Virus record (IMG/VR): IMGVR_UViG_3300028888_000122
Span: 7,976-71,975 of that record
Length of the DNA: 64,000 nt
Source: a virus
Lineage: Duplodnaviria > Caudoviricetes
Reading direction: 5' to 3' (one strand)
A program made the position numbers and the translations under genes. Shown here in pieces: positions 2,870 through 62,524 of this stretch. The number at the start of each line of letters is the position of its first letter. Position 1 is the first letter of the stretch. The notes below the pieces were generated by a model that worked only from the letters and a program-made list of their open reading frames with translations, had not been told where the DNA came from and ran no database searches.

Positions 2870-3511
2870 ATGGCTTTAGGAACATTTAATACTATCGGCT
2901 CGGGATCGGACCAATTCGGCGGTTCGACCCACGTCTGGGCGAGAGTAGATCGTGTCATCCATGGTGGTCGCAAAATCAACGTGACCGGTATGGCTCCTGG
3001 CACCGTGATTCCCGCCGGTACGTTGGTGCAGTACACGTACAACAGCGAGTACGCCACCATCCTGACCAGTTCTTCCAGTCTGTCGGCAGGCAACCATTAC
3101 GGCCTCATCTTCAACGATGTGTGCGTTCCCGACAACTGCATCTTCGCATCATGCGCTATCGTCACCCACGGTGTCGTTTGGGCAGATGCCATCGACGTGG
3201 CTGAGGCACAGCAGCAGTACATGCCTGGTATCGAGTTCATCCGCAACCACATGGGCAACATCATCTACAGCGTTTCCGCCACCGTAAACACAGGTGCCAC
3301 CCTCAAGGGTTCCGCCGACAACGTGCTTGCAGGTAGTGCTTATCACGCTACCGTAGAGTATGCTGATGGCTACGAGAAGAACTCCCTCACCGTCACCATG
3401 GGCGGTACGGCAATCAGCACAACTGCTGTAAACACCGCAAAGACCGAGATCAGCGTTCCTTCGGTGACTGGCAACCTTGTTATCACTGTAACACCCAAAA
3501 CAACCGCCTAA
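2870..3511 (+). CDS. Capsid decoration/cement protein with a C-terminal Ig-like beta domain
   Basis: Between scaffold and major capsid; VIPAGTLV motif; C-terminal VTMGG...SVPSVTGNLVITVT beta repeat. Confidence 0.55.
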   Translation: MALGTFNTIGSGSDQFGGSTHVWARVDRVIHGGRKINVTGMAPGTVIPAGTLVQYTYNSEYATILTSSSSLSAGNHYGLIFNDVCVPDNCIFASCAIVTHGVVWADAIDVAEAQQQYMPGIEFIRNHMGNIIYSVSATVNTGATLKGSADNVLAGSAYHATVEYADGYEKNSLTVTMGGTAISTTAVNTAKTEISVPSVTGNLVITVTPKTTA

Positions 3512-50149: not shown

Positions 50150-50213
50150 GTTCCATACACCCGCAACACGTACGGGTGTTTCGTCGCCTTTCAGCGGTAC
50201 TCATCAGTGGAAC
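50150..50213 (-). ncRNA. Type I hammerhead ribozyme 1 (GUA site)
   Basis: GTTCCA-CTGATGA-stem II-GAAA-CACCCG/CGGGTG-TA-TGGAAC. Confidence 0.85.
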
Positions 50214-50215
50214 TT

Positions 50216-50452
50216 TTAAACATCGAACCCCATGTCGCCCGTCTCGTAGTCGGTACCATAGGCCTCGTTGCATCTTTCCATTTCACACTCAGGGATATAA
50301 GAATTCCCGTTAAACTAAAAGTCGCCCCGGTCGAGCACGTTGCGCAGAATTGTGCCACCCTGCGGATCTCCCGACATGAGGACGTCGTACTCCTCGTTGG
50401 TCACATGGATGAAGGCGCCGAGGCGCATCCACACTCTCCTGTTATTGTCCAT
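50216..50452 (-). pseudogene. 79-codon gene interrupted by an in-frame TAG at 50315-50317
   Basis: MDNNRRVWMRLG...LDRGDF*FNGNSYIPECE...GFDV. Confidence 0.6.
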
Positions 50453-52082: not shown

Positions 52083-52145
52083 ACTCCAGACACCCGCTGG
52101 CAGTCGGGTGTTTCGTCGCAATTCCCAGCGACTCATCAGTGGAGT
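52083..52145 (-). ncRNA. Type I hammerhead ribozyme 2 (GUC site)
   Basis: ACTCCA-CTGATGA-GTCGC/GCGAC-GAAA-CACCCG/CGGGTG-TC-TGGAGT. Confidence 0.92.
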
Positions 52146-52301
52146 TTACTCGTATTCGAGTGTGATTTCGATGATGTCTTGTATTGACATGAGTTCATAG
52201 CATTCGTCGCAACAACCGTATGAAGATGTTATCCAATGGGTCTCTTTGTCCCAATCTATCTCACGCCCACAGTTGTTACAGTGATATACATGTTTTTCCA
52301 T
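52146..52301 (-). CDS. 51-aa zinc-finger protein (absent from the ORF track)
   Basis: HCNNCG...CCDEC. Confidence 0.55.
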   Translation of the reverse strand: MEKHVYHCNNCGREIDWDKETHWITSSYGCCDECYELMSIQDIIEITLEYE

Positions 52302-52628: not shown

Positions 52629-52687
52629 GTTCTGGACACCGCCAACGCGTAGCGGTGTTTCGCCCATTGAGGGCTCGTCAGCAGAAC
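52629..52687 (-). ncRNA. Type I hammerhead ribozyme 3 (GUC site)
   Basis: GTTCTG-CTGACGA-GCCC/GGGC-GAAA-CACCGC/GCGGTG-TC-CAGAAC. Confidence 0.92.
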
Positions 52688-53274: not shown

Positions 53275-53336
53275 ATTCCTGATGCCGGCACGAAGCCGAC
53301 ATTTCGTCTTAATTTTCAAAGACTCGTCAGAGGGAT
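53275..53336 (-). ncRNA. Type I hammerhead ribozyme 4 (AUC site)
   Basis: ATCCCT-CTGACGA-GTCTT/AAGAC-GAAA-TGTCGGC/GCCGGCA-TC-AGGAAT. Confidence 0.88.
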
Positions 53337-54136: not shown

Positions 54137-54240
54137 TTCGCAACCGCCGCCCGCCATTACAGGAAGGCGACACGCTCGTGGCTTGATGCGCTTGTACGTT
54201 CCGCCACGACGGAGTAGGCTATTTCGCACGGAAACGGCCC
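54137..54240 (-). ncRNA. Unassigned structured RNA in a ribozyme slot
   Basis: Stems TCGTGGC/GCCACGA and GTCGCC/GGCGGG; ACGAGCGT shared with 56664-56717. Confidence 0.4.
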
Positions 54241-54306
54241 TCTACGGCATTTTCTCGCCGCAGACGTAGAGTTAATCGTTTGAAGGGAATTTTGCGCTTA
54301 GAATTT

Positions 54307-54343
54307 AAAAAGACAGTCCCGCGCTTCCCAACGCAGGACTGCC
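54307..54343 (-). terminator. Intrinsic terminator
   Basis: GGCAGTCCTGCG/CGCGGGACTGTC stem plus T5. Confidence 0.7.
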
Positions 54344-54397
54344 ATCAACTATCTAATTTTATACATTATGTACAAATGTCTCAATCAAGAGACGGCG

Positions 54398-54429
54398 CAA
54401 AATTAGTGCTTAGTTTTGGATTGCGCAAA
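54398..54429 (-). promoter_or_regulatory. Sigma-A promoter
   Basis: TTTG-20nt-TAATTTTG. Confidence 0.65.
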
Positions 54430-54433
54430 TTTT

Positions 54434-54613
54434 TTACTCTACTTGTTCAATGTCTCTGTAGCCCGTACGGGCGTAGAGAATGTCGTTCATTGTCTCCTCG
54501 CTGTAGCCGTTGATGTCGGCAACGAGGCTGATTTCGGCTTCGGTAGCGATGCCGTTGTCGATGAGAAAATTCTTAACTCTTTCGCAATCTGTGTCGTGAT
54601 AGATGTAACTCAT
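54434..54613 (-). CDS. 59-aa hypothetical protein (absent from the ORF track)
   Basis: ...FLIDNGIATEAEISLVADINGYSEETMNDILYARTGYRDIEQ. Confidence 0.65.
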   Translation of the reverse strand: MSYIYHDTDCERVKNFLIDNGIATEAEISLVADINGYSEETMNDILYARTGYRDIEQVE

Positions 54614-54649
54614 AGTTCGATTGATTTGTCAGTTAGTAAATGCGGATAG

Positions 54650-54707
54650 TTGCCCGTCGAATGTCCGGCATTCGCTCGGCTCTGTTTTCAAGCCGATAAA
54701 CGGGCAA
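54650..54707 (-). ncRNA. Unassigned three-way-junction RNA, motif A copy 1
   Basis: P1 TTGCCCGT/ACGGGCAA; P2 TCGGCT-TGAAAACAG-AGCCGA; P3 CGAATG/CATTCG. Confidence 0.65.
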
Positions 54708-54716
54708 GACCGAACT

Positions 54717-55013
54717 TTAATCAGTGGTGCGGTAGTAATACTCGGCATCACTACCACTCAGGTTGTCGCAGCACCAATCGTGACACTCGTTCCACAGGTC
54801 GTTATAGACGCGTGCAACGTTCTCGTTCTTCTCGTACCACTGCCAAATCTTCCAATTCAGCACGAGCGAGAGTTCGGTGATGTACACGATGTTGCCCCTC
54901 CACTCGGTGAACGCGCGGTGGTAGGTGTCAACGATAGCGTCGGTGCCGAAGACCTCGGCAATCGAGAAGTCCTGCCAAAAGGTGGTCTTCGTTTCGTATC
55001 CATTCACATTCAT
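54717..55013 (-). CDS. Hypothetical protein
   Basis: TTFWQDFSIAE...ELSLVLNWKIWQWY...YYRTTD motif. Confidence 0.7.
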   Translation of the reverse strand: MNVNGYETKTTFWQDFSIAEVFGTDAIVDTYHRAFTEWRGNIVYITELSLVLNWKIWQWYEKNENVARVYNDLWNECHDWCCDNLSGSDAEYYYRTTD

Positions 55014-55024
55014 AGCAATAGGTA

Positions 55025-55372
55025 TTAATGGTTAAACAAATTCTTGTCTTGGTTTAACAATTCAGGTTTAATCTCGCCATACAGGTAGTCGTCGGTGCAC
55101 ATGAAGCAGAAATAGTCCGCCATAGGCTTGCCTTTCCAATACGGAACTGTTACGTATCCGTTTTGTTTCCACTCGTTCTCATAGCGCCCATCATCAATCT
55201 CTGTGTGATTGAACACGTTGCAGTTAATGGCGCGAACTGCATATTCTTCGTAATCATAGAATAATCCTACGCCTGACATGCAGAGTGCAGCAATCGCATT
55301 CTCTGCGAGTTCCAACAATGCCTTTTGCTCAGGAGTGAGTTGGATGAGTTTTTTGATGATTTCTTCATTCAT
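55025..55372 (-). CDS. Hypothetical protein ending DKNLFNH
   Basis: Start reassigned to MNEE. Confidence 0.65.
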   Translation of the reverse strand: MNEEIIKKLIQLTPEQKALLELAENAIAALCMSGVGLFYDYEEYAVRAINCNVFNHTEIDDGRYENEWKQNGYVTVPYWKGKPMADYFCFMCTDDYLYGEIKPELLNQDKNLFNH

Positions 55373-55404
55373 AGTCGTAAAGTTTAAGTTAATAATGTTC
55401 ATTG

Positions 55405-55462
55405 CCGCCCGCAGAATATCCGATATTCACGCGCGTCTGTTTTCAACGCGCTATGCGGGCGA
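55405..55462 (-). ncRNA. Unassigned three-way-junction RNA, motif A copy 2
   Basis: P1 TCGCCCGCA/TGCGGGCGG; P2 GCGCGT-TGAAAACAG-ACGCGC; P3 GAATAT/ATATTC. Confidence 0.65.
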
Positions 55463-55466
55463 GTCC

Positions 55467-55760
55467 TTAAAAGAGGTTCTTGTCTTGCTTTTGGAAGTTT
55501 CCTTCCAGCCAACGGATGGAATAGTTACATACCGCTTCAACGTACTCATGGTACAGGTAGCATAAAATGCGGGTCTTCGGACTGTCATAGTTGCCCCACA
55601 TATCAACGATACACAACTCGTCGCCTTGTAATTTCAGTCCGAGCAGGTCTGGCTCGCCAGATTTGTCATCGTACGGAAGAGTGAGATGCAGCGGTTTGGG
55701 AAACATTATCGTTCCTCCGTTTTTCTTGCAGTAATCAATAAGGGTTTCAATCTTGTCCAT
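55467..55760 (-). CDS. Hypothetical protein ending DKNLF
   Basis: Start reassigned to MDKIET. Confidence 0.65.
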   Translation of the reverse strand: MDKIETLIDYCKKNGGTIMFPKPLHLTLPYDDKSGEPDLLGLKLQGDELCIVDMWGNYDSPKTRILCYLYHEYVEAVCNYSIRWLEGNFQKQDKNLF

Positions 55761-55786
55761 ATCAAAGTTGATTTTAATAGTTAGTA

Positions 55787-55842
55787 CATTGCTGTGCGTG
55801 TGCTCTCGCTGCACAATGCGCGGTCGTACCGCTCACGCACAA
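55787..55842 (-). ncRNA. Unassigned three-way-junction RNA, motif B copy 1
   Basis: TTGTGCGT-GA-GCGG-TACGA-CCGC-GCATT-GTGC-AGCGAGA-GCAC-ACGCACAG-CAATG. Confidence 0.65.
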
Positions 55843-55847
55843 TCCGA

Positions 55848-56639: not shown

Positions 56640-56663
56640 ATCGTCAAAGTTTAAAAGTTAGTA

Positions 56664-56717
56664 CATTGTCAGGGCGGGGAGTTGCGGACTCCCTACAACG
56701 CTCGTACTTCGCCCCGA
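56664..56717 (-). ncRNA. Unassigned structured RNA in a ribozyme slot
   Basis: TCGGGGCG/CGCCCTGA enclosing AAGTACGAGCGTTGTA and GGGAGT/ACTCCC; ends CAATG like motif B. Confidence 0.5.
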
Positions 56718-56721
56718 TTGA

Positions 56722-57012: not shown

Positions 57013-57041
57013 AACTGATTGAATTTAAAGTTAGTAATTAG

Positions 57042-57093
57042 CATTGGTGGGCGGTCTCGCTCCGCCATGCCAGGTCGTTCCTGTCACACCAAT
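57042..57093 (-). ncRNA. Unassigned three-way-junction RNA, motif B copy 2
   Basis: ATTGGTG-TGA-CAGG-AACGA-CCTG-GCAT-GGCGG-AGCGAGA-CCGCC-CACCAAT-G. Confidence 0.65.
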
Positions 57094-57101
57094 CCATTGT
57101 G

Positions 57102-58166: not shown

Positions 58167-58200
58167 AATAGTACACTGATTAAAGTTAGTAAAAGTTAGT

Positions 58201-58245
58201 TTGTTCCCGGGCGGGGAATCGAACCCCGCCGAAAACCATTCGGGA
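58201..58245 (-). ncRNA. Minimal tRNA mimic (5-bp acceptor + 7-bp T-stem)
   Basis: TCCCG-AATGGTTTTC-GGCGGGG-TTCGATT-CCCCGCC-CGGGA-ACAA. Confidence 0.65.
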
Positions 58246-58247
58246 GA

Positions 58248-59858
58248 TTAGGCAACGTCAGCCAGGTAGTACGTGCCGCAGATTTCAACGCAGTCGTCGG
58301 ACAGCGCATCGACGAACTTGCCGAAACGCCTGTCAAACGCGCGCACGCAGTCGTCCTTGTGGAAGAAATGTCCATCGATCTTGACTGCGTCTTCGAGGAG
58401 AATGGTCTCGCAGTTGTTGGTCTCGACGGTCTCGCTCTCGAGCGCATAAGCCCACGAGCCATAGATGTCATAGTCGAGTTCCTTGCACTCGTCGCTGGGA
58501 GCGTACTCGCCCTCGTGCTCACCGTGAGAGAGTTCGTAGCAATCGTCTCGCAACACATTACGGTCATCGTAATCCGTGACGAGATCATCGTCATCATAGT
58601 AGGCGTATTGTCCCTCGTGCTCGCCAGCTTCGATGATACGCGCGTCGTCGAAGTGACAATAGGTGTTGTCGTAGAGGCAATAGGTATCATCGCACAGGTA
58701 GTACGAATCAGTGTGCTCGCAATAGTACGCATCGTCTTCGTGGCACCACATGTCACGATATTCGAGATACACGCAGTCGTCGTCGTCGTACCACTCATCG
58801 TCACGCTCTACGTAGCGCTCTCCGTCACGGAGTTCTCCGTCACGTCCTCGCTGGCCAGGAACGATACGTCCCGTGATAGCGAGGTCGATGTCGCCGTCGC
58901 AGGTTTCCCAATTGACGGCACGCTCATCGTCGCATTGGAGCCAGCGGAAACCGTCCTGGAACGAGAGCGTGTCGCCCGGCTGTGCCGTGCAGCGCACCCA
59001 CAGTCGGCTGTTGTTGAGTTTCGTTCCGTCCAACAGGACGTACGAGCGGTTATCCCAACAAGAGCACTCGAACTGCTTGTGTCCGTCAATCTTGTTCTGC
59101 TCGGCGAGCAAATAGATCAACTGTCGGCGCGCCTCGGAGTTCTCTCCGTACTGACGCTCAGCCAGCCTGTACGTCTTCTCGCTGTGATCCTCGTCGTGAA
59201 CAGCCGTCCACACGATACAACGAGCGATGAGTTTATCTCCGTCCCACAGCCCTGCTGCAAGCGCGTCAGGCATAGAGTCGCGGTAGAATTTCCACTGACC
59301 CTTGTCGTTCATGCACGAGCCGAAATTGCTGTGTCCGCTGTAGATTTTCTCGAAATCCCTGTCGAGCGTCAGACGGTAGCGCCCGTCGCCCGCGTGACCG
59401 GCACGATAGATGGCGCTGAGTTGCTCAGCGAAATACACGCGCACGGGTTCGGGATATTCGGGATGCGTCTCGTCGATGATACGGCGGAAAAACTTCCCGC
59501 ATTTCATCTTGAAGACACGGTTCACGTCACACTTGACGTAACGGATGCTCAGCGGGTCTCCGTCAGCGCACACACCGTTGCGGTCGTCCGTCTTGTACAC
59601 TTCGCTGTGAGCGTAGATGTACTTGTCGGTCAGTTCCTCGGGTTTCCCCTGGATGTGGATGCTGATGTTAGGCTCGCTTACGGCATCGTCGCGGAAACGC
59701 TTGCCGACGTAGTTTACCACGCCCTGCAGATCGTCCACGGCGACAGCCTCGTCGTCGTTGTTCTCAAAACCCCACGCCCAGAGGGCTGTGATGATGTTTG
59801 AGTACGTACGGTTACCTTTTCTCTCCTCGATTCTCTTGATTAATTCTTCTTGTTCCAT
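58248..59858 (-). CDS. Large protein with a PcfJ-like region and an acidic Cys/His/Tyr repeat C-terminus
   Basis: SCMNDKG...IARCIVW...LAERQY; repeated DDCV/CxxT units; start reassigned to MEQEE. Confidence 0.65.
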   Translation of the reverse strand: MEQEELIKRIEERKGNRTYSNIITALWAWGFENNDDEAVAVDDLQGVVNYVGKRFRDDAVSEPNISIHIQGKPEELTDKYIYAHSEVYKTDDRNGVCADGDPLSIRYVKCDVNRVFKMKCGKFFRRIIDETHPEYPEPVRVYFAEQLSAIYRAGHAGDGRYRLTLDRDFEKIYSGHSNFGSCMNDKGQWKFYRDSMPDALAAGLWDGDKLIARCIVWTAVHDEDHSEKTYRLAERQYGENSEARRQLIYLLAEQNKIDGHKQFECSCWDNRSYVLLDGTKLNNSRLWVRCTAQPGDTLSFQDGFRWLQCDDERAVNWETCDGDIDLAITGRIVPGQRGRDGELRDGERYVERDDEWYDDDDCVYLEYRDMWCHEDDAYYCEHTDSYYLCDDTYCLYDNTYCHFDDARIIEAGEHEGQYAYYDDDDLVTDYDDRNVLRDDCYELSHGEHEGEYAPSDECKELDYDIYGSWAYALESETVETNNCETILLEDAVKIDGHFFHKDDCVRAFDRRFGKFVDALSDDCVEICGTYYLADVA

Positions 59859-59891
59859 AACGAAAAAACTGATTAGTTGATAAAAGTTAGC

Positions 59892-59938
59892 TGTGTTCCC
59901 TGTGGAAGAGTCGGACTGCCACAAAGCACCATGCAGGG
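59892..59938 (-). ncRNA. Minimal tRNA mimic (5-bp acceptor + 7-bp T-stem)
   Basis: TCCCT-GCATGGTGCTTT-GTGGCAG-TCCGACT-CTTCCAC-AGGGA-ACAC. Confidence 0.55.
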
Positions 59939-59942
59939 AAAA

Positions 59943-60348: not shown

Positions 60349-60412
60349 GTTCTGGACGGCTGCGACGCGCACAGCCGTTTCGTCGCAATTTCCAGCGACT
60401 CGTCAGCAGAAC
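60349..60412 (-). ncRNA. Type I hammerhead ribozyme 5 (GUC site)
   Basis: GTTCTG-CTGACGA-GTCGC/GCGAC-GAAA-CGGCTG/CAGCCG-TC-CAGAAC. Confidence 0.92.
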
Positions 60413-60908: not shown

Positions 60909-60972
60909 GTTCCAGACGCTGTCAACGCGTGACAGCGTTTCGTCGCAATTTTCAGCGACTCATCAGTGGAAC
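60909..60972 (-). ncRNA. Type I hammerhead ribozyme 6 (GUC site; predicted cut between 60915 and 60914)
   Basis: GTTCCA-CTGATGA-GTCGC/GCGAC-GAAA-CGCTGTCA/TGACAGCG-TC-TGGAAC. Confidence 0.93.
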
Positions 60973-61881: not shown

Positions 61882-61943
61882 GTTCACCCACATTTTTGTG
61901 ACGCTCTGAGCCTAAGAACCTGTTTTGAGTCGCTCAGACGACT
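61882..61943 (-). ncRNA. Pistol ribozyme
   Basis: P1 AGTCG/CGACT with loop TCTGAG pairing to CTCAGA (pseudoknot), AAAA linker, P2 GTTC/GAAC, GCGT, P3 CAC/GTG, GGT cleavage junction. Confidence 0.82.
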
Positions 61944-62496: not shown

Positions 62497-62524
62497 AATT
62501 CTCTATTTTAAAAGTTAGTAGTGT

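Follow-up and report, generated by a model that had tools for sequence, protein, structure and literature searches.

Motif A, a structure-conserved RNA family in the early operons of uncultured phages

The window analysed here, a stretch of 64,000 nt, covers the right-hand 64 kb of an IMG/VR phage record 72 kb long. On its minus strand a gene array runs from ~63.8 kb down to 47.9 kb. At about half of the junctions between these genes lies a structured RNA element, after which come an ACUAAC-type leader and the AUG of the next gene. Ribozymes and tRNA-like elements were located in the following slots of the array:

62515-62600, minus strand: tRNA-like element, a four-way junction with an 8-bp acceptor-like stem and a GGUUCAAUUCC T-arm
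61882-61943, minus strand: pistol ribozyme (Rfam, 58 bits)
60909-60972, minus strand: hammerhead (Rfam model)
60349-60412, minus strand: hammerhead (Rfam model)
58185-58250, minus strand: tRNA-like element, a minihelix with a 5-bp acceptor-like stem and a GGGGUUCGAUUCCCC T-arm
54139-54214, minus strand: pistol variant (33.1 bits, just below the Rfam threshold of 34.5)
53275-53336, minus strand: hammerhead (Rfam model)
52629-52687, minus strand: hammerhead (Rfam model)
52084-52168, minus strand: hammerhead (Rfam model)
50151-50236, minus strand: hammerhead (Rfam model)

The six hammerheads have canonical cores and scored 20-33 bits, mostly slightly below the Rfam threshold. Both tRNA-like elements have true T-arms and are followed by A-CAAAC and the standard leader; neither was called by ARAGORN or Rfam. 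They suggest that punctuation by RNase P/Z and by ribozymes is mixed within one operon.

Motif A occurs in three copies, two of them in slots of this array 755 nt apart (A2 and A1) and the third 8 kb from the others (A3). Their features are as follows:

54650-54707, minus strand: Motif A copy 1 (A1), seen in the MFE fold (z = -3.2); 90.3 bits in R1, 76.7 bits in R2
54707-54699 with 54658-54650: A1 helix P1, followed by junction J1/2, UA, at 54698-54697
54696-54690 with 54682-54676: A1 helix P2, enclosing loop 2, GAAAACA, at 54689-54683; junction J2/3, GC, at 54675-54674
54673-54669 with 54663-54659: A1 helix P3, enclosing loop 3, CCGGA, at 54668-54664; conserved tail C at 54649
54614-54649, minus strand: A1 tail and leader, given in the slot table as C, UAUCCGCAUUUACUAACUGACAAAUCAAUCGAACU and AUG
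55405-55462, minus strand: Motif A copy 2 (A2), seen in the MFE fold (z = -3.2); 87.3 bits
55462-55454 with 55413-55405: A2 helix P1, followed by UA at 55453-55452
55451-55445 with 55437-55431: A2 helix P2, enclosing loop 2 at 55444-55438; J2/3, GU, at 55430-55429
55428-55424 with 55418-55414: A2 helix P3, enclosing loop 3, UCGGA, at 55423-55419; tail C-A at 55404-55403
63097-63154, minus strand: Motif A copy 3 (A3), diverged; 35.6 bits in R1, 56.3 bits in R2

P1 of A1 begins 10 nt past the stop of gene 54717-55013 and is followed downstream by the leader UUUACUAACUG and gene 54434-54613; this ACUAAC-type leader is the same as that found after the hammerhead, pistol and tRNA-like elements of the array. 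P1 of A2 begins 5 nt past the stop of gene 55467-55760. An ATG listed at 55402 adjoins A2, and judging from the sequence the real start is more likely the in-frame ATG at 55369, after UUAUUAACUU. The first-pass annotation had placed A1 and A2 in slots equivalent to those of hammerheads, and the ribozymes on the same strand in neighbouring gaps of this phage agree with that placement. A3 begins 14 nt past a terminator-like hairpin (63204-63168) and heads a non-coding region of ~600 nt upstream of the gene array.

The same annotation had drawn A1 and A2 as three-way junctions, and MFE folding returned that structure for both (-30.0 and -29.2 kcal/mol, respectively): a P1 of 9 bp, UA, a P2 of 7 bp with loop GAAAACA, G-N, and a P3 of 5 bp with loop YCGGA leading directly back into P1, in each case co-oriented with the genes. 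As had been noted, both copies keep a 9-nt loop, UGAAAACAG, whose only exact matches in the window are at these two places, and have in common GCCCG in P1, GAAU/AUUC in P3 and the UA junction. P2 had been described as changed almost entirely with pairing preserved. Pairing is indeed kept, but the extent of change was overstated: three of six variable P2 pairs change on both sides, and the copies differ further at four pairs of P1 and one of P3. The third copy, absent from the first-pass annotation, was found with a covariance model built from A1 and A2 (R1; match 63095-63156, 35.6 bits, E 9e-8). It has loop 2 GAAAAUA, loop 3 CCGGA, a J2/3 of 5 nt and a P3 of four A-U pairs. The likeness of the first two copies is far beyond chance, since both this third copy and relatives elsewhere were found with the two-copy model.

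Further features of the array were noted on the minus strand. A second three-way junction, Motif B, occurs in two copies (55761-55847 and 57013-57101) with the layout P1, a linker of 1-3 nt, P2 (loop ACG/AACGA), an invariant GCAU junction and P3 (invariant loop AGCGAGA) joined without linker to P1. All three of its stems differ between the copies with pairing preserved, and the ACUAAC leader follows both; no Rfam match was obtained, and the MFE z-score was -2.6 in one copy and ~0 in the other. The slot element at 59859-59942 is closed by UUCCCUG/CAGGGAA, had no Rfam match and gave an MFE fold that was not significant (z = -0.9). The element at 56640-56721 has ACGAGCGU and a P3-like hairpin in common with the pistol variant at 54139-54214, lacks the 5' hairpin, pseudoknot partner and G-U cleavage dinucleotide of pistol, and may be a degenerate or split pistol. 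Downstream of A1 lies a regulatory island (54300-54433) with the inverted repeats AAUUUUGCGC / GCGCAAAAUU. The best sigma-70-like promoter match (54384-54356) stands there just before a strong, 14-bp, terminator-like hairpin (54343-54312), which lies ~310 nt downstream of A1 at the promoter's predicted start and may both close one transcript and form a cap at the 5' end of the one after it. This layout of the island is also present in a relative of the window phage (L302). Across the 17-kb array only two strong same-strand terminators were found, one 14 nt before A3 and this one ~310 nt after A1.

At least 10 small early proteins encoded in the array (49.8-60.3 kb, minus strand), otherwise different in sequence, end in D-K/R/N-N-L/M/F-F, usually in the form DKNLF followed by the stop or by 2 extra residues (e.g. 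the genes ending at 55467, 55848, 56093, 56361, 56722, 59943, 50455, 50738 and 49812). The counterpart endings in L302 read D-T/D-NLFNA, and the whole looks like a common C-terminal tag. The nucleotides at these gene ends vary (CUCUUUU, AUGUUUU, CUGUUC and others), so the ending is conserved at the protein level. Pairing of loop 2 of Motif A (AAAACAG) with CUGUUUU at these gene ends was considered and rejected, on that ground and because other phages that host the motif lack it.

Searches of A1 and A2 as 101-nt sequences against all 4227 families of Rfam 15 gave no match at E <= 10, the sole exception being a 9.7-bit chance match to a ribosomal leader on the opposite strand. Within this search no match at E <= 10 was obtained to the hammerhead models (RF00163, RF00008, RF03152), whose absence agrees with junction strands of UA, G-N and none in Motif A, or to the pistol, twister, twister-sister, hatchet, HDV-like, hairpin, VS and glmS models. 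Elsewhere in the window the hammerhead models scored 23-33 bits on true hammerheads, and pistol reached 58 bits. As the first-pass annotation had it, the cores of known ribozymes are missing: neither CUGANGA/GAAA nor the pistol or twister pseudoknots are present. ARAGORN found no tRNA genes in the window, the tRNA and tRNA-like models of Rfam gave no match at E <= 10, and Motif A has only three helices, not the cloverleaf of a tRNA. A match to a RAGATH-type Rfam motif, which had been thought possible, was not obtained among the RAGATH families in Rfam 15 (E <= 10), and it is to these families that the comparison applies. RAGATH motifs, reportedly described by Weinberg et al. in 2015 as RNAs near twister and hammerhead-associated genes, resemble Motif A in having been found by the same contextual logic and in having no assigned function. 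No description of Motif A was found in the searchable literature.

Relatives were recovered by scanning IMG/VR and metagenomes with patterns derived from the three window copies, by protein-anchored collection in which no RNA pattern was used, and from one genome of Prevotella's order. In total at least 29 distinct relatives were obtained from viral contigs, metagenomes and one Bacteroidales genome; 25 distinct sequences make up the alignment A4, and four later canonical copies (L457, L459, L460, L469) bring the number to at least 29. Relatives elsewhere scored 33-70 bits with the two-copy model. They come from freshwater, marine and probably gut or rumen phages with G+C contents of 27 to 51%. 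Earlier exact-pattern scans of IMG/VR, using features of A1 and A2 only, had returned chance matches only. In prokaryote genomes, the pattern search gave no members among the first 120 matches listed, none in 401 genomes of Flavobacterium's order and one in 401 genomes of Prevotella's order. At 17 loci with relatives of the 98-aa gene that precedes A1, and in their whole records, neither Motif A nor ribozymes were found. Eight loci with relatives of the 59-aa gene downstream of A1 had no Motif A or Rfam ribozyme at the equivalent place, so that among them no orthologous slot was seen in which a known ribozyme takes the place of the motif.

In alignment A4, 97.7% of cells pair, and compensatory changes were found in 17 of the 21 pairs, which bears out the covariation first proposed from two copies. 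Changes on both sides occur in all nine P1 pairs, in five of seven P2 pairs and in three of five P3 pairs. Doubly changed cells numbered 205, against 59 +/- 6 in shuffles, and the covariation score was 0.97, against 0.20 when shuffled and 0.08-0.23 with partners slid; sliding the partners by 1-3 columns reduced pairing to 34-49%. RNAalifold applied to a plain, unfitted MAFFT alignment gave the same junction and the same three helices. The structure is on the transcribed strand, because a U20-G28 wobble is invariant and other wobbles are frequent, and all copies are co-oriented with their flanking genes. Compensatory changes in every helix confirm Motif A as a structure-conserved RNA family. 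It is a genuine, uncatalogued family of cis-acting phage RNAs of ~58-60 nt, transcribed with the early operon.

The family has ~20 invariant bases. The sequence of P1 (8-9 bp) is free, and the invariant U-A of J1/2 comes next. P2 is 7 bp, of which five pairs are free and the last two are U-A and U-G, and it shows no length changes. Loop 2 has, with its closing bases, the consensus UUG-N-R-AAYA-GA; its start resembles a GNRA or T-loop, and at the second position of G-N-R-A-A-Y-A all four bases occur once the protein-anchored copies are added. In J2/3 (G-N, 5 nt in A3) the G is conserved. The second and third pairs of P3 (5 bp, 4 in A3) are always A-U, although these two pairs were left free by the first search pattern only. 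Loop 3 is Y-C-G-R-A, and no linker separates P3 from P1, so that the P3 and P1 stack measures 13-14 bp in all A4 sequences and the invariant bases of the two hairpin loops stand ~13-14 bp from the end of P1. Directly after P1 an unpaired C62 is found in 24 of 25 sequences and A63 in 18 of 25 (A4), the usual tail being C-A-A. The sampling of loops 2 and 3 was partly fixed by the search patterns; C62 and A63 were demanded by none, and the protein-anchored copies retain the same loops, junction and tail. In one decayed copy (L455) both loops are lost together while P1 and UA are retained, which fits loops 2 and 3 acting together. The idea that loop 3 (YCGR) is always self-complementary and forms kissing dimers, as in guanidine-II, was weakened by CCGAA in L469.

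Members fall into two contexts. In the majority context, group I (L175, L177, L180, L208, L264, L449, L441, L432, L452, L429, L428, L426, L459, L460, L457 and probably L182, L294 and L299), Motif A lies 3-17 nt past the stop of the gene that opens the early operon. Downstream of the motif, a non-coding stretch of 400-700 nt leads to small early genes, RadC, Rad52 and other genes; A3 of the window has this layout. Repeats in the non-coding regions after Motif A are phage-specific. In group II (A1 and A2 of the window, L268, L302, L240, L245, L281, L423 and L469), the motif lies 25-55 nt upstream of the next gene, and here the upstream genes differ. L302 shows the order Motif A, small gene, terminator, pistol and three hammerhead slots, two of which were reported by Rfam; its slots are as in the window phage, with Motif A equivalent to hammerhead, pistol and tRNA-like slots. 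L268, a near-identical relative (3131-3192 against window 54434-54709), lacks the 59-aa gene after A1, and its motif and leader join the post-gene terminator region directly, a clean indel of a single-gene cassette at the motif boundary. Over both contexts, among copies with a readable upstream side, the distance to the upstream stop is 3-17 nt, or 59 nt for A3, where a terminator hairpin intervenes; the exception is L469, which has no upstream ORF.

The first gene in group I encodes a basic, lysine-rich protein of 129-167 aa without known domain, for which no Pfam or PHROG family was found. It is the first early-operon gene in many freshwater phages (alignment A5: L175, L177, L180, L264, L449, L441 and others), and in some JGI records it is named cobinamide kinase, which looks spurious. 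Motif A follows this protein in every lineage checked except L455, where the copy is decayed, and among lineages reached through the protein the canonical motif comes next in four of five. The protein family is absent from the window phage, the complete 46-kb L423 genome and the L429 record, and a dependence of Motif A on the protein was rejected on these grounds; as the window phage and the complete L423 genome lack it, the RNA is not the protein's private site. Motif A thus occurs without any common neighbouring protein, which points to a host factor or an autonomous function.

Tentatively, the best explanation is that Motif A acts as a ruler, a rigid module resembling tRNA that would mark the boundary of a transcript and be cut by a protein nuclease. 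P3, stacked on P1 without a linker, would form a rod of 13-14 bp, and P2 lying beside it would let the two invariant loops meet in a putative loop-loop contact; the rod would end at the invariant unpaired C, usually C-A-A. The loop elbow would be recognised by a protein endonuclease, of the host or possibly of the phage, which would make its cut a fixed distance away, where P1 terminates near the conserved C-A. One product would retain the folded module as a cap at its end, and the other would have a clean start or end; in the window phage the downstream product would bear the standard ACUAAC leader. Motif A would be read in this way as tRNA-like elements are read, as transcript punctuation. 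RNase P, RNase Z and CCA-adding enzymes measure tRNA, and a measuring partner is suggested here by the constant helix lengths, the ending of P1 at an unpaired C-A and the position of the loops at the far end of the stack. Because the tRNA-like elements, which are not self-cleaving, use the same slots, the equivalence of slots argues for an RNA processing element and not specifically for a ribozyme. Compared with the signals of 'tRNA punctuation' processed by RNase P and RNase Z, Motif A would likewise combine a rigid coaxial rod of fixed length with a two-loop elbow, and its U-A would correspond to the 2 nt between the first and second helices of tRNA (positions 8-9). With the tRNA-like elements of the array it has in common the unpaired N-C-A tail (N-CAA in both elements), the slot position and the downstream leader. 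Against this reading, Motif A has three helices and not four, no T-loop sequence, a loop 3 of 5 nt where a T-loop has 7, a tail of CAA and not CCA, and a rod of 13-14 bp and not 12, which is 1-2 bp longer than the stack of standard tRNA. Punctuation between cistrons would moreover be the minority context only, since group I copies are followed by 400-700 nt of non-coding DNA.

The ribozyme proposed by the first-pass annotation would be a new self-cleaving class, with the junction U-A and G, or the docked loops, as active site and no protein needed. Phage-array ribozymes (hammerhead, pistol, twister) are of similar size and likewise lie between genes on the transcribed strand (Perreault et al. 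2011, PMC3088659; review PMC6765202). Motif A is a three-way junction as the hammerhead is, and shares its phages with hammerhead and pistol (window, L302) and with twister: L299, unrelated to the window phage, has a twister-P3 4.3 kb downstream on the same strand. Its slots in the window phage and L302 are equivalent to those of hammerhead and pistol and precede the same leader, and it is compact (~60 nt), has a probable tertiary contact, requires no particular neighbouring protein and matches no known class. The invariant junction U-A and G resemble the kind of cleavage-site and general-base set that twister has. In contrast, a known ribozyme lies nearby in only two of ~14 independent lineages (window/L268/L302, and L299), and the ~120 kb of group I loci searched held no Rfam ribozyme at E <= 0.05 apart from that twister-P3; most members are in phages with no detectable ribozyme. 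Elements resembling tRNA, which are not catalytic, also occupy slots of the array. Most of the conserved bases belong to the terminal loops, and only three junction bases are fixed. An internal cut would leave the products clamped by a P1 of fixed 8-9 bp that is often G+C-rich, and a cut in a loop would leave them held by P2 too, whereas the hammerheads and pistol of the array have 4-6 bp through which products are released. P1 does not vary in length as do the outer helices of known small ribozymes, and a distance of 13-14 bp separates the C-A tail from the conserved loops, which could not act on it from there. Motif A is a ribozyme candidate, and the ribozyme reading is on balance unlikely. 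We give equally little credence to the wider proposal that phages use such a class interchangeably with hammerhead and pistol for cutting early polycistronic transcripts. Almost as likely as the ribozyme is a new RNA that needs no protein of its own and that a host machine measures or is modified by, for example a minimal three-helix substrate of RNase P/Z or a put-like polymerase modifier in Bacteroidota phages.

Processive antitermination by a put- or EAR-like polymerase-modifying RNA, in which the nascent motif would act in cis so that early terminators are read through, has to be taken seriously as a rival, given that the motif stands behind the first early gene and that strong terminators lie by A3 and A1. 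In lambdoid phages nutR and putR stand behind cro, and the group I motif, with its long non-coding stretch after it, is placed comparably. The nut and put sites and EAR RNA are, like Motif A, cis-acting structured RNAs within early operons; boxB loops begin with G-N-R-A, as loop 2 does. No common phage protein is required, L302 retains the order A1, small gene, terminator, and terminator-like hairpins lie within 400 nt downstream in L441, L429, L428, L264, L432 and L452. About half of the members had none in this crude scan, however, so that downstream terminators are inconsistent, and A3 lies after, not before, its terminator. Motif A further differs in being a three-way junction and not one or two hairpins, in lacking boxA and in having no identified N-like protein. 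Two copies as close as A2 and A1 would not be needed, the fixed length of P1 and the conserved tail are left unexplained, and such antitermination RNAs are not known outside HK022-type phages and the Bacillus eps operon. We consider this reading unlikely, and to a like degree that of an end cap only, whose compact fold would stall exonucleases and stabilise the flanked message with no specific cut, as REP hairpins and viral exonuclease-resistant RNAs stall exonucleases. The end cap accords with the closeness of all readable copies but L469 to an upstream stop, which holds even where 400-700 nt of non-coding DNA follow, with a rigid junction and probable loop-loop contact, and with the lack of need for a phage protein. 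A simple G+C-rich hairpin would nevertheless suffice for it, loops that do not vary, helices of fixed length and a conserved tail point to specific recognition, and L469 has no upstream ORF. Conserved loops on variable stems are also a classic sign of protein recognition, and the constant presence of the basic protein before the group I motif, together with the canonical motif following it in most lineages reached through it, would suit an operator at which an RNA-binding protein of the phage controls translation or stability, or else a small RNA acting in trans. The absence of that protein from the three phages named above and the differing upstream genes of group II make this improbable. Most improbable of all is a DNA-level joint of mobile cassettes with an incidental RNA fold: the missing 59-aa gene in L268, with the motif and leader abutting the post-gene region, speaks for it, but the stems are almost wholly different between phages with pairing kept, the structure is strand-specific through its wobble pairs, and orientation matches transcription throughout.

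The evidence supports Motif A well as a new RNA family, which many uncultured phages carry in their early operons. If it were self-cleaving, it would be a new ribozyme class reached by the contextual logic that gave pistol, hatchet and twister-sister. If it were cut by a host nuclease measuring from the loop elbow, it would mimic tRNA geometry in minimal form, with three helices, and phages would mix catalytic and enzyme-read RNA punctuation within one operon. In both cases Motif A is a phage RNA that is compact, highly conserved and widespread, and that has no catalogue entry.
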